The position numbers were made by a program, and so were the translations under genes. From Nitrosopumilus sp. (lineage in GTDB: Archaea; Thermoproteota; Nitrososphaeria; Nitrososphaerales; Nitrosopumilaceae), in NCBI GenBank assembly GCA_965219345.1, contig OZ244732.1:1376001-1440000 (forward strand): a DNA stretch of 64,000 nucleotides. The letters are read 5' to 3'. Shown here in pieces: positions 59,099-62,413 of this stretch (position 1 is its first letter; the number at the start of each line of letters is the position of its first letter). The notes below the pieces were generated by a model that saw only the letters and a list, made by a program, of their open reading frames with translations, had not been told where the DNA came from and did no database searches.

Positions 59099-59473
59099 GC
59101 AATTATTGCATGTGTAACGTTGTCTTTTGGTTCCATTCTTTAGTTTTCTGAATCCTTGTTTTACTATCTCAGTTGAATAACATTTTGAACAAATCTTAGG
59201 ACGTTCTGTTTTCTCTATCTTGCTTTGTGATGTAATGGAATCCATTAAGATAATACAAGATTTGATATGCTTGCAATGTTTATCATCTAACTTTCTTAAT
59301 CTAAAATGAAAATCCTTGCACTCACAAGTCCATACATCGACTTTTGGTAGTTTTCTAATGTTGTAAGTTGTATCTGAGTTTTGTGATTCCACAGCATAAT
59401 GATTCTTTGTAATTTTTCTAATTGAATTAGTTTTTGAGAAAATTTGTGTTGCTTTTAGTTTTCTTTGATTCAT
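59099..59473 (-). pseudogene. N-terminus of a SWIM + Zn-ribbon transposase (IS6-type), truncated by IS481
   Basis: CECKD...CKH SWIM finger; CSKC.S..IVKQG.R...QRYTCNNC ribbon; reading frame runs into the IS481 end at 59098. Confidence 0.8.
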
Positions 59474-59546
59474 ACTACTAATAGTATTATAGTATTATTA
59501 ATAGTTATACTATAAGAAATAAATACTAATTATAATATTGATTAAC
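59474..59546. promoter_or_regulatory. divergent promoter/operator between transposase and RHH gene
   Basis: 73-bp, extremely AT-rich, with direct and inverted TAGTAT/ATACTA units. Confidence 0.55.
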
Positions 59547-59684
59547 ATGGGTAAGAAATTAGTAACATCTGTTAAAATTGATGAAGATGTTTGGAAAGAA
59601 GCCAAAATCACAGCTATCAAACGAGGAACTACGGTAACAGATCTTTTGAATACGGCATTAGAAGAAGAATTAAAAAAACAGTGA
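59547..59684 (+). CDS. ribbon-helix-helix (CopG-like) regulator, 45 aa, not in ORF track
   Basis: MGKKLVTSVKIDEDVWKEAKITAIKRGTTVTDLLNTALEEELKKQ: beta strand plus two helices. Confidence 0.8.
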   Translation: MGKKLVTSVKIDEDVWKEAKITAIKRGTTVTDLLNTALEEELKKQ

Positions 59685-59797
59685 ATAGATAACGTATAGT
59701 ACGGTACTTCTTTCAAAACACAAATTCGCCCTATTAAATTACAATAAACCTTATAAGTAACTTTTACTTCCATTAAAGTAATTGGTGATTTTCTTTA

Positions 59798-61003
59798 ATG
59801 TTTAGTAAGTCTGTTATAGATGAGTATAACGATCCATTATGGGACTCGAGTAAGTTTACTAAACCTAATGGAAAATTTGAAAGTAATGACCAAAACCAAC
59901 AAACATTTGTTCCCAATGTATTACCCCCTTCAATTTCATACGATAATGAATTAGTAATGTTACTTGCACAAGCCGAAAGAAAAGTTGGTGAGTTAAAAGG
60001 AAAAGGCAGTGAATTAAAAAACCCACATATTTTAATTCGAGCATATCTAAAACGTGAAGCAGTATTAAGTTCAAAAATTGAAGGAACCTTAGCTTCTCTA
60101 GAAGATTTGAACAAACATGAAGCTATCGGCAATATTGGACAAAATGTAGCTGAAAACTTGAGATTACGAGAAGTTGTGAATTATGTTAGAGCATTAGAAG
60201 AATCTTTAAAAAAAATAGAAGAACCAAATCAACTTGTTGATTTGAATATTATAAAAACAGCTCATAAAACATTAATGAGTGGAGTTAGAGATCAAGATAA
60301 AAATCCTGGAGAATTTAGGACAACACAAAATTGGATCGTAAAAACTCAAGGAACCAAAAAGACAATTATCTATACACCACCGTCTCCAAAAAAAATATTA
60401 GATTTACTTACAAATCTTGAAAAATTTTTCCAAACAGATCATAATCAAATTTCTACATTAATTCAATGTGCTATCATCCATTATCAATTTGAAGCTATAC
60501 ATCCGTTCCTTGATGGGAATGGGAGAATCGGAAGATTATTTCTTCCATTGATATTATACAAAAAAGGTTTGTTGCCAGAACCATTATTATATTTAAGTGC
60601 TTATTTTGATAAATATCAAGAAGAATATTATAATGGATTGTTAGCAGTGAGTCAAAAAGGCAAATGGAGGGAATGGATGAAATTTTTCCTTAAAGCTTTT
60701 GCAGAACAAGCTGATGAAACAATAAAAAATATTCAAAAATTAGTAGATTTGGAAAAAAAATATAAAAATATACTTAGACAAAAAAATACCAGTAGTAATG
60801 TTGTTCTTTTAATGGAACATATGTTTTCAAATCCATACGTTACAATTCCACAAGCTAGTAAATTTCTTGAAGTTACATATCCATCAGCAAAAAATGCAGT
60901 TATGACATTAGTAGATGTAGGAATAATACAACAAACAGACATATTCTATAATAGTAAAGTTTTTCTTGCAGAAGAAATAGAAGCAACTCTGAATATAGAT
61001 TAA
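59798..61003 (+). CDS. Fic family protein with N-terminal inhibitory motif and C-terminal HTH
   Basis: HPFLDGNGRIGR catalytic motif; SSKIEG inhibitory motif. Confidence 0.93.
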   Translation: MFSKSVIDEYNDPLWDSSKFTKPNGKFESNDQNQQTFVPNVLPPSISYDNELVMLLAQAERKVGELKGKGSELKNPHILIRAYLKREAVLSSKIEGTLASLEDLNKHEAIGNIGQNVAENLRLREVVNYVRALEESLKKIEEPNQLVDLNIIKTAHKTLMSGVRDQDKNPGEFRTTQNWIVKTQGTKKTIIYTPPSPKKILDLLTNLEKFFQTDHNQISTLIQCAIIHYQFEAIHPFLDGNGRIGRLFLPLILYKKGLLPEPLLYLSAYFDKYQEEYYNGLLAVSQKGKWREWMKFFLKAFAEQADETIKNIQKLVDLEKKYKNILRQKNTSSNVVLLMEHMFSNPYVTIPQASKFLEVTYPSAKNAVMTLVDVGIIQQTDIFYNSKVFLAEEIEATLNID

Positions 61004-61109
61004 AAAGGATTTTAAAAATTCTTGATAATTAGAGATTTTATTAATTTCTTCATGTCCCGAATTGAACAGTAATCTCAAATGACCCGAGTTTTGAACAGTG
61101 TACATAATC

Positions 61110-61135
61110 TCAGCACCCGAAGATTACACAGAACC
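61110..61135 (-). repeat. IS6-type right terminal repeat
   Basis: Exact reverse complement of 62043-62068 (26 bp). Confidence 0.9.
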
Positions 61136-61189
61136 ATATTCCAACACTTTTAATAACTTCCCACAATTCCTGCAGCAGTCAATTCGCAC
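61136..61189 (-). pseudogene. N-terminal stub of a small Zn-finger gene cut by the terminal repeat
   Basis: GTG start: MRIDCCRNCGKLLKVLEY, then runs into GGTTCTGT. Confidence 0.5.
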
Positions 61190-61255
61190 AATTTATGACA
61201 TATGATGTTATTTTATAATTCTTTAACTAATATTCATAAAAAAAGATAAGGGTAT

Positions 61256-61825
61256 CTATCTTAATAGATCAGATATTCTCTCTTTTACGTCGTCTTTGTT
61301 GCCTGTTCTATCATCTAGTTTGTTTATTGCTTGACCATCTTCAATTTTGTAAATAGATTTTGAGATAGATATTGGGTTGTATGTGTCCCCAAATATACTA
61401 TGGATGTCTTTTCCAAGTAATAAAATTACTTGTTCTCCCACAGTTAGATCTACTGACTCTGTTCTAGAAATTATTCCATCTAAATCACCACCACCCACTA
61501 CAAATGTGATAGTTTGAGAATTTATATCACCTTTGATGACATCATCTACTTTAACAGTAAATTCGGTGTAAATTCTAGGTGGTTTATCATTATGGATAAT
61601 CTTCCAGTATGGTTTGGCTTCTAGTATAGTTCCTTCAACAATAAGAGATGCTCTGTTGATCTCTTGCTCTTCTGTTAAAGCCTCTTCTAAAGTACTAACA
61701 CCAATAGATATACCTGGGTTATCAACTGCAAATTGTTTCCCTATTGTATCAGCATCTGGTTGACTAAATACAAGAACAGGAATTACCACAAGTACCAAAA
61801 GAGGTAGTAATAGTTTTTTATTCAT
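61256..61825 (-). CDS. secreted/membrane-anchored protein (OB/TIMP-like beta domain)
   Basis: Signal MNKKLLLPLLVLVVIPVLV from ATG 61825; ASLIVEGTI...YTEFTVKVDDVIKG...GG pattern. Confidence 0.75.
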   Translation of the reverse strand: MNKKLLLPLLVLVVIPVLVFSQPDADTIGKQFAVDNPGISIGVSTLEEALTEEQEINRASLIVEGTILEAKPYWKIIHNDKPPRIYTEFTVKVDDVIKGDINSQTITFVVGGGDLDGIISRTESVDLTVGEQVILLLGKDIHSIFGDTYNPISISKSIYKIEDGQAINKLDDRTGNKDDVKERISDLLR

Positions 61826-62042
61826 CTTGATACATCCCCCTAATTGTTGCTTTATCATGGCTGTTCAATGTTCTATCTACAGTATTGACTGAAATTGAAG
61901 CTATCATAGGTGAGCTTGATGTTGTTGTATGATCATGGATACCAGCAACATGTCCGATTTCATGGATGGCAACAGTTTCATAGTCATAAGACATCCATCC
62001 TTGAGATACATTTACATCTCTAAAATCTTTAGCACTGTTAAA
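61818..62042 (-). pseudogene. C-terminal fragment of a matrixin-like metalloprotease
   Basis: ...YDYETVAIHEIGHVAGIHDH...SPM...RGMYQDE*; 5' part removed exactly at the repeat at 62043. Confidence 0.8.
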
Positions 62043-62068
62043 GGTTCTGTGTAATCTTCGGGTGCTGA
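62043..62068 (+). repeat. IS6-type left terminal repeat
   Basis: ggttctgtgtaatcttcgggtgctga; GGTTCTGT start is typical of IS6-family ends. Confidence 0.9.
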
Positions 62069-62124
62069 ATCTTTAGGCTAATAATATTCTTATATATGGT
62101 ATATAATATTATGATGTTACAAGC

Positions 62125-62213
62125 TTGTTGTGTGTGTTCTGTCGGTTTACCCGATTAGAATAAGCATACCTCCTGTTGGACTGGGCACAGTTCGTCGGAA
62201 AGCAGGAGGCAAT
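62125..62213 (+). ncRNA. candidate structured RNA
   Basis: TTATATAT at 62090-62097 upstream; hairpin gtgtgt-gttct-gtcgg/ccgat-agaat-gcatac; 9-bp stem cctcctgtt/agcaggagg with inner gactg/cagtt. Confidence 0.5.
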
Positions 62214-62221
62214 TTATTTTT

Positions 62222-62293
62222 GGTTGTATGGTCTAGTGGTATGATGTATGGATTCCGACCCATACGACGTGGGTTCAATTCCCACTACCATCA
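62222..62293 (+). tRNA. tRNA-like element with 8-nt anticodon loop (AUUCCGAC); identity unassigned (Gly-like scaffold)
   Basis: D arm gtc-tagtggtat-gat; stem tatgg/ccata; short variable loop cgac; T arm gtggg-ttcaatt-cccac; acceptor ggttgta/taccatc with one U-C mismatch; no CCA. Confidence 0.75.
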
Positions 62294-62301
62294 CAATTCT
62301 A

Positions 62302-62413
62302 TTAGACTGAATTTTGCTTGTGCAATGAAGCGTTTTCTATAATTGTTTTCCAACGATTTATTCCGTCAACCGTGATTTTAGCTGATTCTGCTGGAGTTTG
62401 TCCTTTGAGTGCA
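62302..62413 (-). pseudogene. extreme C-terminus of an IS6-type transposase
   Basis: ALKGQTPAESAKITVDGINRWKTIIENASL, homologous to the end of 56897-57332. Confidence 0.8.

Follow-up and report, generated by a model that had tools for sequence, protein, structure and literature searches.

The insertion sequences (IS) of the IS6 family have short (15–20 bp) terminal inverted repeats (TIRs) which start with GG and contain cTGTt and caaa motifs, and their long transposases include two clostridial clades, h and i, of 340–350 and 450 aa, both with a zinc finger and clade i with an extra N-terminal domain (PMC7986276). In the portions of that review covered here, long zinc-finger transposases are named only in Clostridia, and ISDsp3 is the sole family member for which a passenger gene is named (Varani et al. 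2021, PMC7986276). The archaeal members named come from the Euryarchaeota and Crenarchaeota, the word Thaumarchaeota occurring 0 times in PMC7986276 and in PMC6807381, and Harmer and Hall (2019, PMC6807381, as far as covered) doubt that archaeal members belong to the family. In the covered portion of a 2019 survey of thaumarchaeal mobile elements, passenger-gene transposons were not detected in archaea (PMC6563490), and that of a 2026 survey of archaeal IS makes no mention of IS6 cargo. Among other cargo to be met below is a relative of Sofic, for which toxicity is reported, countered by AS1, a 47-aa protein encoded downstream of it (PMC12249575, from the part of the article covered). The subject of this report is the locus 59099–62413 of the window, a stretch of 64,000 nucleotides from the Nitrosopumilus sp. 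contig OZ244732.1 (positions 1,376,001 to 1,440,000), which holds pieces of IS6-like transposases, a gene for a small ribbon-helix-helix-like (RHH-like) protein, a Fic gene, a tRNA-like gene and two copies of a 26-bp repeat. We searched the literature by text, ISfinder, supplements and paywalled papers excepted, and met no account of cargo elements of this kind in Nitrosopumilus.

An earlier note on this DNA had taken both halves of the locus to come from one type of element. The transposase pieces belong to two clades, and the left one is part of an element with its own end at 61102, so that the locus is in all likelihood a mosaic, built by successive insertions and truncations of two IS6-like transposon lineages, and not one split element. 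Its left part, 59099–61102, would be the right 2 kb of a cargo transposon (a transporter IS, tIS), here called A-type. This copy of A probably landed in a resident element of a second lineage, here called GGTTCTG-type, 7–8 bp inward from the right TIR of that element, and the transposase of A would later have been cut at codon 125/126 by a 1068-bp IS with an rve-type transposase, along with further rearrangement. The two 26-bp repeats would be ends of GGTTCTG-type elements, one right and one left, which stand in direct orientation and enclose 907 bp taken from a foreign island. Of the right-hand element there presumably survive only the TIR, about 30 codons of the transposase and a unique RNA region that contains a tRNA-like gene. 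The features are as follows (ORF, open reading frame).

58031–59098, plus strand: GC-rich 1068-bp IS with an rve-type integrase-like transposase (ORF 58010–59059; Pfam rve, E 4.3e-14)
59099–59473, minus strand: codons 1–125 of an A-type IS6-like transposase, with a CxC..CxH (SWIM-like) motif and a CxxC..CxxC zinc ribbon (89% identical to that of genome G036)
59474–59546, no strand: AT-rich divergent intergenic region, putative promoter/operator of the RHH and transposase genes
59547–59684, plus strand: RHH-like small DNA-binding protein, 45 aa, first gene of the cargo module (weak profile matches)
59798–61003, plus strand: Fic protein, 401 aa, of the SoFic type, cargo (Pfam Fic_N, E 1.8e-20; Fic, E 1.4e-19)
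61051–61102, plus strand: right terminal repeat of the A-type transposon, in two parts (ATGTCCCGAATTGAACA, 9 nt, AAATGACCCGAGTTTTGAACAGTGTA), outer end at 61102
61103–61110, no strand: CATAATCT, the 8 bp outside the end of A, presumed target site, abutting the inner edge of the 26-bp repeat
61110–61135, plus strand: right-end TIR of the second IS6-like group, a solo end (GGTTCTGTGTAATCTTCGGGTGCTGA read from outside)
61136–62042, minus strand: captured 907-bp fragment with a 200-aa secreted-type ORF (61256–61858) and the C-terminal 74 codons of an M10 metallopeptidase gene (61818–62042)
62043–62068, minus strand: left-end TIR of the second IS6-like group (homology to genome G007 and to the X5/X7 contigs stops at 62042)
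62075–62221, plus strand: structured unique non-coding stretch with three hairpins and a T-run after the last (RNA fold)
62222–62294, plus strand: tRNA-like gene, anticodon loop of 8 nt (AUUCCGAC), one mismatch in the acceptor stem (ARAGORN, Rfam)
62302–62412, minus strand: C-terminal transposase remnant of the second (372-aa) clade, about 30–37 codons (tblastn)

Related DNA was sought in 61 genomes, 15 of which, the present one included, gave a match, three parts of the locus being found apart from one another: the transposase N-terminus in G036, the Fic module in G017 and the middle fragment in G007. The motif and transposase searches covered 151 genomes of the genus. G numbers denote genomes (G000 being this one, with C1 its contig) and L numbers related loci.

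The A-type transposon and its cargo

The end of A is marked by a conserved terminal repeat of about 52 bp. In four aligned copies of 61041–61103 similarity stops at ...GAACAGTGTA, and conservation stops at the same base (...GTGTA) in 29 A-type ends from 13 genomes; the end motif is present at 28 places in 13 of the 151 genomes, one locus holding two. TIRs of this type are 47–78 bp long and two-part, start with TACACTGTTC(A/C)AA or a close variant and keep CTGTT and CAAA, the family form of the second part being AAATG.CCCGAGTTTGGAACAGTGTA. They form inverted pairs for 10 of the 16 full-length transposase copies in 15 loci (none for the other 6), and perfect 8-bp target duplications were found in G165 (GTCTTTTT), G153 (CAAATCTT) and G154 (AAAAAGTG). 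Eight annotated intact elements measure 3531–7388 bp, with 4–6 further ORFs each; the G154 copy is 4413 bp long and that of G153 5882 bp. A 1510-nt contig from another study (run X5) matches exactly 61103–62042: the 7-bp spacer, the 26-mer and the middle fragment are thus present in it, whereas A and the left TIR are not, a state which resembles an empty site for A. A contig of run X2 covers 60703–62700 with 0 differences. On account of the conserved ends, the target duplications in relatives and the start of the X5 contig we place the end of A at 61102, and the earlier identification of 61110–61135 as the TIR of the transposase–RHH–Fic element is accordingly not supported.

Only codons 1–125 of the 128-codon minus-strand ORF 59087–59473 are native, the rve IS cutting it after codon 125 and supplying the final three codons and the stop. 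The fragment 59099–59473 breaks at this junction and holds neither the helix-turn-helix (HTH) nor the DDE or C-terminal parts. It is 89% identical to residues 2–124 of the G036 protein and 89.5% to residues 3–126 of that of G159, its DNA (59100–59474) being 84% identical in G036; 47 of the 151 genomes match it at E up to 1e-20, and the N-termini of nine IS6-like loci in the same genome are 29–33% identical (E 5e-10 to 1e-3). The full-length relatives have 445–458 aa (445 from the ATG in the intact G159 protein), and one of them, that of G159, matches Pfam DDE_Tnp_IS240 (54 bits against a cut-off of 27), which bears out the earlier assignment of the window N-terminus to an IS6-type DDE protein. 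The proteins, of about 445 aa, are made up of the CxC..CxH domain, the zinc ribbon, the HTH, an IS240/IS6-type DDE domain and, after a sequence of the form ...GLDGKTPA.SAGINL.LG.NKYLDLIKL, a C-terminal extension of about 85 residues. Residues C49, C66, H68, C94, C97, C121, C124, D207, D273 and E308 are invariant in an alignment of 58 sequences and C51 is nearly so. A phmmer search with the G159 protein over 1.84 billion representatives gave 2779 relatives at E up to 1e-3, 260 of them at E up to 1e-30. In an AlphaFold2 model of this transposase (mean predicted local distance difference test score 89.3) the SWIM-like region forms strands and then a helix, and the ISCth4 transposase comes first among the PDB matches of the model (E 3.6e-9), ahead of retroviral integrases. 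The label SWIM refers to the CxC..CxH signature only, because with a threshold as loose as E 10 the Pfam SWIM model is still absent from the matches of the N-terminal domain. A 3.3-kb contig assigned to a Dehalococcoidia metagenome-assembled genome (L125) encodes a transposase 79% identical to the Nitrosopumilus A-type; it is probably mis-binned.

The middle of the transposase, thought earlier to be missing, lies elsewhere in the genome. Residues 127–442, 90% identical to those of G159, are encoded at C1:257080–258027, and a 52-bp repeat, the other terminal repeat, then ends at 258320. The two halves are 1.18 Mb apart and their breakpoints lie within 6 bp of each other at the nucleotide level. 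A 1.18-Mb inversion was considered, the flipping of C1:257080–1435098 being sufficient to rejoin the halves, and is ruled out by G007, G021 and G009: in these genomes the neighbour of the nuo operon is the sequence now at 267088, and in G000 that sequence is still on this side of nuo, with a 10-kb island in between. Two islands, of about 10 kb (C1:257080–267087) and about 12 kb (268035–280181), stand beside the nuo operon and are absent from the same three genomes; the former opens with the C-terminal half of the A-type transposase. With its transposase truncated the window copy can no longer move on its own, and it is a dead remnant of the A-type family.

Upstream of the transposase lies the AT-rich region 59474–59546, which had been described as an operator. 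Short imperfect direct and inverted repeats are indeed present, although in DNA of 25% GC no excess of these over chance was established. The divergent 45-aa ORF 59547–59684 is likewise present, whereas its assignment as an RHH protein comes from weak matches, all below the Pfam cut-offs: Omega_Repress (E 0.0016, 19.1 bits against 33.3), ParG (E 0.0035, 17.9 against 21.4) and RHH_4 (E 0.009, 16.5 against 25), with PDB matches to ParG at E 0.14 and Omega at E 1. This protein may repress the divergent promoters. An ORF starts 44–120 bp divergently upstream of the transposase start in 23 of the 26 related loci, which come from both transposase clades; it is small (45–92 aa) in 22 of the 23 and of 142 aa in one. 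By inspection these small genes are RHH-like, AbrB/MazE-like or of a CxxC zinc-ribbon type, Pfam MazE_antitoxin supporting three of them. In G036 nucleotide homology to the window reaches only as far as the transposase ATG, which places the small regulator gene in an exchangeable cargo module and not in the conserved core.

The Fic gene reported earlier is present at 59798–61003. Fic proteins carry a catalytic motif HxFx(D/E)GNGRxxR, and the inhibitory motif is (S/T)xxxE(G/N); the present protein has HPFLDGNGRIGR and, within its own chain, SSKIEG. It matches the PADLOC SoFic profile at E 6.3e-111 (369 bits) over positions 5–354 of 361, and scores 181.7 bits against the NCBIfam SoFic equivalog model, under the cut-off of 550, and so is not an equivalog. 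The Fic module 59694–61103 is 83% identical in G017, where homology begins 10 bp after the window RHH stop, and no RHH gene or A-type transposase is found within 14 kb of that copy. There is no AS1-like ORF in the 47 bp between Fic and the TIR. From the full-length SoFic match and the two motifs, Fic is best read as a further piece of defence cargo, a predicted AMP-transferase of the SoFic type which would act in abortive infection. As to the toxin-like cargo of the earlier note, then, the gene is cargo, but better taken for a SoFic-type defence gene than for the toxin of an RHH pair.

The cargo of the A-type relatives consists mostly of restriction-modification systems: a HaeIII-type endonuclease with a D12 methylase, type III restriction-modification (twice), an MvaI/BcnI-type endonuclease with its methylase (G154), a similar methylase/endonuclease pair in G014 (by inspection), type I fragments, and an Eco57I-type methylase with a PLD nuclease. 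A HYR/fn3 surface protein and proteins of unknown function are carried as well. The layout of transposase, divergent small DNA-binding gene, cargo and terminal repeat is complete in G159 and recurs in other intact relatives; cargo-carrying IS6-like transposons, more elaborate than a simple IS6, do occur in this genome and in the genus. The RNA cassette, which had been ascribed to the same element, is not part of it: in the intact G159 element only 18 bp, which hold no RNA gene, separate the transposase stop from the TIR. In two intact A-type elements (L102 10835–11200; L112 1120–1482) a GIY-YIG gene of about 120 aa stands between the transposase stop and the terminal repeat.

The 26-bp repeat, the captured fragment and the right-hand remnant

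The two TIRs were rightly described as exact 26-bp complements (61110–61135 on the plus and 62043–62068 on the minus strand, 0 mismatches, where 0.00 such matches are expected in 100 shuffles), and their orientation was rightly assigned as well: the left part has a right end, whose outer base is 61135, and the right part a left end, with its outer base at 62043. The ends of this second group start with GGTTCTGTGTAATCTTCGGG... / GGTTCTGTGTAA, and so have the GG start of IS6 TIRs. With up to three mismatches the 26-mer has 11 matches in the genome against 0 for a reversed control, and more at lower stringency. The same core ends the intact elements C1:401802–402784, 1450318–1451300 and 1218898–1223066. 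Two identical 983-bp IS with GGTTCTG-type ends encode a transposase of 208 aa; the third element (4169 bp) encodes one of 372 aa (CxC..CxH, zinc ribbon, DDE), with a tRNA-Leu(CAG) gene 49 bp upstream of it, and also holds, by inspection, genes for AbrB-like, DNA methylase and DUF262/HNH-like proteins. Perfect 8-bp duplications (CGATCAAT and TCTCAAAG) border two GGTTCTG-type units, of 2968 and 2956 bp. In none of these (the 983-bp IS in its two copies, the 4169-bp element and the 2968/2956-bp units) is there an RHH gene or an RNA cassette between the TIR and the transposase 3' end, an outcome which the earlier note had itself named as refuting its model.

The 907-bp fragment between the repeats is of foreign origin. 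Positions 61164–62042 have a counterpart of 94% identity within a larger island of G007, in which the peptidase gene is whole; in the window it is cut by the left TIR, the remaining part matching Peptidase_M10 at E 3.8e-8. The G007 island holds a VirB4-like gene (sequence inspection), and the rest of that island was not found in G000. The bracketing of the fragment by directly repeated ends is compatible with replicative cointegrate formation.

Right of the fragment, the earlier note had placed an RNA cassette and a transposase C-terminus on the minus strand, and both are present. The C-terminus, 62323–62412, is 73% identical (tblastn) to residues 338–367 of the intact 372-aa transposase of this genome and reads ...ALKGQTPAESAKITVDGINRWKTIIENAS; it is of the ...VDG.NKWKTIIQNAS type, unlike the A-type C-terminus. 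The left TIR, the tRNA-like gene and these 30 or so codons thus belong to the second group and not to A. As for the notion that a SWIM N-terminus and a DDE C-terminus form one protein, the N-terminus does start an IS6-type DDE protein, but the C-terminus in the right half is that of the other clade. The remnant is cut between 62413 and 62440, where the region of an N6/N4 methylase-HNH gene begins.

The stretch 62075–62221, a candidate RNA gene, folds at -44 kcal/mol on the plus strand (z -3.48, equalled by 0 of 200 shuffles) and with z -1.65 on the minus strand. No homologue of 62069–62301 was found in this genome or in the 61 genomes searched. The tRNA-like gene that follows scores 48.6 bits with Rfam tRNA against a gathering score of 29; ARAGORN gives it an 8-nt loop, no amino-acid assignment and one U-C mismatch in the acceptor stem. 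A second tRNA-like gene with an 8-nt loop, holding UCGU where that of the window holds UCCG, is found at C1:787949–788026 in the same place of another IS6 remnant, both genes standing between a left TIR and a transposase 3' remnant. Of the 46 tRNA or tRNA-like genes in the genome, seven are no more than 300 bp from an IS6-like transposase locus, where chance would give 1.17; 1 of 2000 permutations reached seven. Those adjacent to IS6-like loci include two extra tRNA-Leu(CAG) genes and two of tRNA-Arg(CCU), the Arg genes having long variable arms.

At the left boundary, the rve IS has three further copies in the genome (99.6–99.8% identity) and a GC content of 0.55–0.62, against 0.25–0.36 in the adjoining DNA; no target duplication was found at the flanks of the window copy. 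A continuation of the transposase to the left of this IS was sought in three frames, and beside the other three copies, and there is none. The copy at C1:52990–54057 is flanked by a 16-bp direct repeat (AGAATACATCATTGAT), which the other three copies, that of the window among them, do not have. Further to the left, 54634–57330 is another wreck, with the left end of a third TIR variant (GGTTCTGTGAAGTTATCGGG) at 54634, a gene for a 447-aa surface-type protein (55135–56478, minus strand) and a transposase C-terminal fragment (56834–57262) with a 73-bp tandem duplication (56745–56926). The family of the surface-type gene is repeated about ten times in the genome and, at two other loci, is carried inside IS6-type units flanked by target duplications. 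On the right side of the locus, 62398–63597 encodes an N6/N4 DNA methylase fused to an HNH nuclease domain, split into ORFs 62398–63018 and 63094–63597, after which there is a weak IS6-like right end at 63659–63678. The right-hand remnant was considered as a complete 1636-bp element ending there and rejected, as this end matches the core at 16 of 20 positions and has no target duplication.

Other readings of the locus

Were the locus a single element with the order TIR, RNA cassette, transposase, RHH, Fic and TIR, bounded by the 26-bp repeats, one would expect these repeats to be identical, the left part to carry a right end and the right part a left end, and both parts to hold IS6-like transposase pieces on the minus strand, and all this is observed. 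We nevertheless give such an element hardly any credence: A has its own conserved 52-bp end at 61102, the X5 contig carries the 26-bp repeat without A, the transposase pieces come from clades which are about 30% identical at the N-terminus, intact A-type elements, where the stop codon is 18 bp from the TIR, have no RNA cassette, and intact elements with the 26-bp type of TIR have neither the RHH gene nor the cassette at that place. A variant on this theme is an A lineage with an end of three sites, the inner repeats being sub-terminal transposase sites and the GGTTCTG-type 26-mer the true outer terminus. The 26-mer does resemble the inner repeats (CTGTGTAATCTTCGGG against CTGTTCAAAACTCGGG), weak similarity in G036 continues beyond GTGTA, and two copies in G170 have an R-oriented IS6-like end 12–15 bp beyond it. 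The spacing to the 26-mer-like end, however, varies (7, 12 and 15 bp), and in three intact elements the target duplications stand immediately outside TACACTG.../...CAGTGTA; the X5 contig begins at 61103, and most of the 29 ends are followed by no TIR-like sequence in this orientation, which leaves an end of three sites highly improbable.

The cargo, too, admits of another reading, in which RHH and Fic would be a toxin-antitoxin pair stabilising the transposon, RHH neutralising Fic as AS1 does Sofic of E. coli. Such a pair is favoured by the reported toxicity of wild-type Sofic, which a 47-aa neighbour counters (PMC12249575, in the covered part), and by the size and place of RHH, 45 aa long and encoded 113 bp upstream of Fic. 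Yet AS1 is encoded downstream of Sofic and RHH upstream of Fic, RHH is no longer than the bare fold and is without a toxin-binding tail, and Fic has an inhibitory motif of its own; moreover, the 83%-identical module in G017 has no RHH gene within 14 kb, and small RHH, AbrB and zinc-ribbon genes head cargo other than Fic as well. We regard the pair as unlikely.

Returning to the mosaic of A-type and GGTTCTG-type insertions, several observations weigh against it or against its IS6-like character. The A-type TIRs do not start with GG, and the G159 transposase scores 109.7 bits with NCBIfam transpos_IS6, under the cut-off of 125. The element in G165 (L056 2649–5262), 2.6 kb long with the A-type repeat inverted at both ends, encodes a frameshifted IS1595-like transposase and three unknown genes, and no A-type transposase. 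The left end of A, next to which the other copy of its target site would be expected, lies outside the window; the flank of the other half (CAAAACAA at 258321–258328) differs from CATAATCT, and the halves lie 1.18 Mb apart in a way for which a simple inversion does not account. A weak similarity of G036 to the window continues past GTGTA over some 30 nt (ataatctca, then 12 of 23), which leaves a small probability to an outer TIR-like site at the end of that lineage. Finally, the matches by which the 45-aa protein is called RHH-like are sub-threshold.

Possible insertion beside resident ends and relation to known systems

In 6 of the 29 A-type ends another IS6-family left end is located exactly 8 bp outside (loci L032, L040, L042, L048, L049 and L051), the spacer and the partner differing each time; the right ends of the partner elements were not found within the 1.5-kb flanks. 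A seventh case, seen by inspection at C1:258321–258380, is a degenerate A-type left end (19 of 25) following C1:258320, and the window copy and the two G170 copies lie 7–15 bp inside a right end. The ends spaced by 8 bp look like insertion targeted to the flank of a resident end. An incoming element would land with its 8-bp target abutting such an end, giving rise to head-to-tail and nested arrays which may carry restriction-modification systems and SoFic between genomes. We put forward tentatively, and with less than even confidence, that Nitrosopumilus IS6-like transposases pick their targets by resident IS6-like termini, building arrays and shuttling defence genes, and that the tRNA-like genes with 8-nt loops are functional cargo and not debris. 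If the family is active, the end-adjacent insertions offer a testable case of target choice by transposon ends.

The locus opens onto a clade of unit transposons in ammonia-oxidising archaea, with whole defence systems as cargo, long two-part IS6-like ends and 8-bp duplications. Provided that the family is active, these would be a route by which restriction-modification and abortive-infection genes spread among abundant marine archaea.

With IS6 and IS26 the elements described here share a DDE transposase matching DDE_Tnp_IS240, 8-bp duplications and a cTGTt...caaa-like core in the TIR; one group starts with GGTTCTG like the classical members, and directly repeated ends bracket a captured fragment. 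For the A-type elements, too, IS6-like replicative transposition would seem the probable mode of movement. Unlike simple single-ORF IS of about 0.8 kb, however, the elements are of 3.5–7.4 kb with cargo, their transposases are of 372–458 aa with the CxC..CxH domain and zinc ribbon in front and, in the A-type, the 85-aa extension, and they do not reach the NCBIfam IS6 cut-off; the A-type TIRs, of 47–78 bp and two-part, start with TA and not GG. The 907-bp foreign fragment, unique in the genome, with a right and a left end in direct orientation around it, presumably represents the pseudo-compound arrangement of IS26 (PMC7986276, in its covered portions), although both flanking copies are wrecks and there is neither a target duplication nor a third copy showing such movement. 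The Fic protein resembles SoFic (PADLOC PDLC03963) in its full-length profile match, catalytic motif, in-chain inhibitory helix motif and C-terminal domain; it differs in its archaeal host, in being transposon cargo behind an RHH gene and in having no AS1-like ORF after it.

As described in the portions of the literature covered, clades h and i are like the present transposases in having an N-terminal zinc finger and an extra domain before the HTH-DDE part, at about 450 aa, but they belong to another domain of hosts and no cargo is reported for them. In plan the elements are like a transporter IS, having one transposase and passenger genes inside one pair of TIRs and forming a unit with its target duplication. 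Whereas ISDsp3, so far as the covered text describes it, is a single copy with one hypothetical passenger gene, the present elements form an entire clade, whose cargo varies, is for the most part of the defence kind and begins with the gene of a small regulator.

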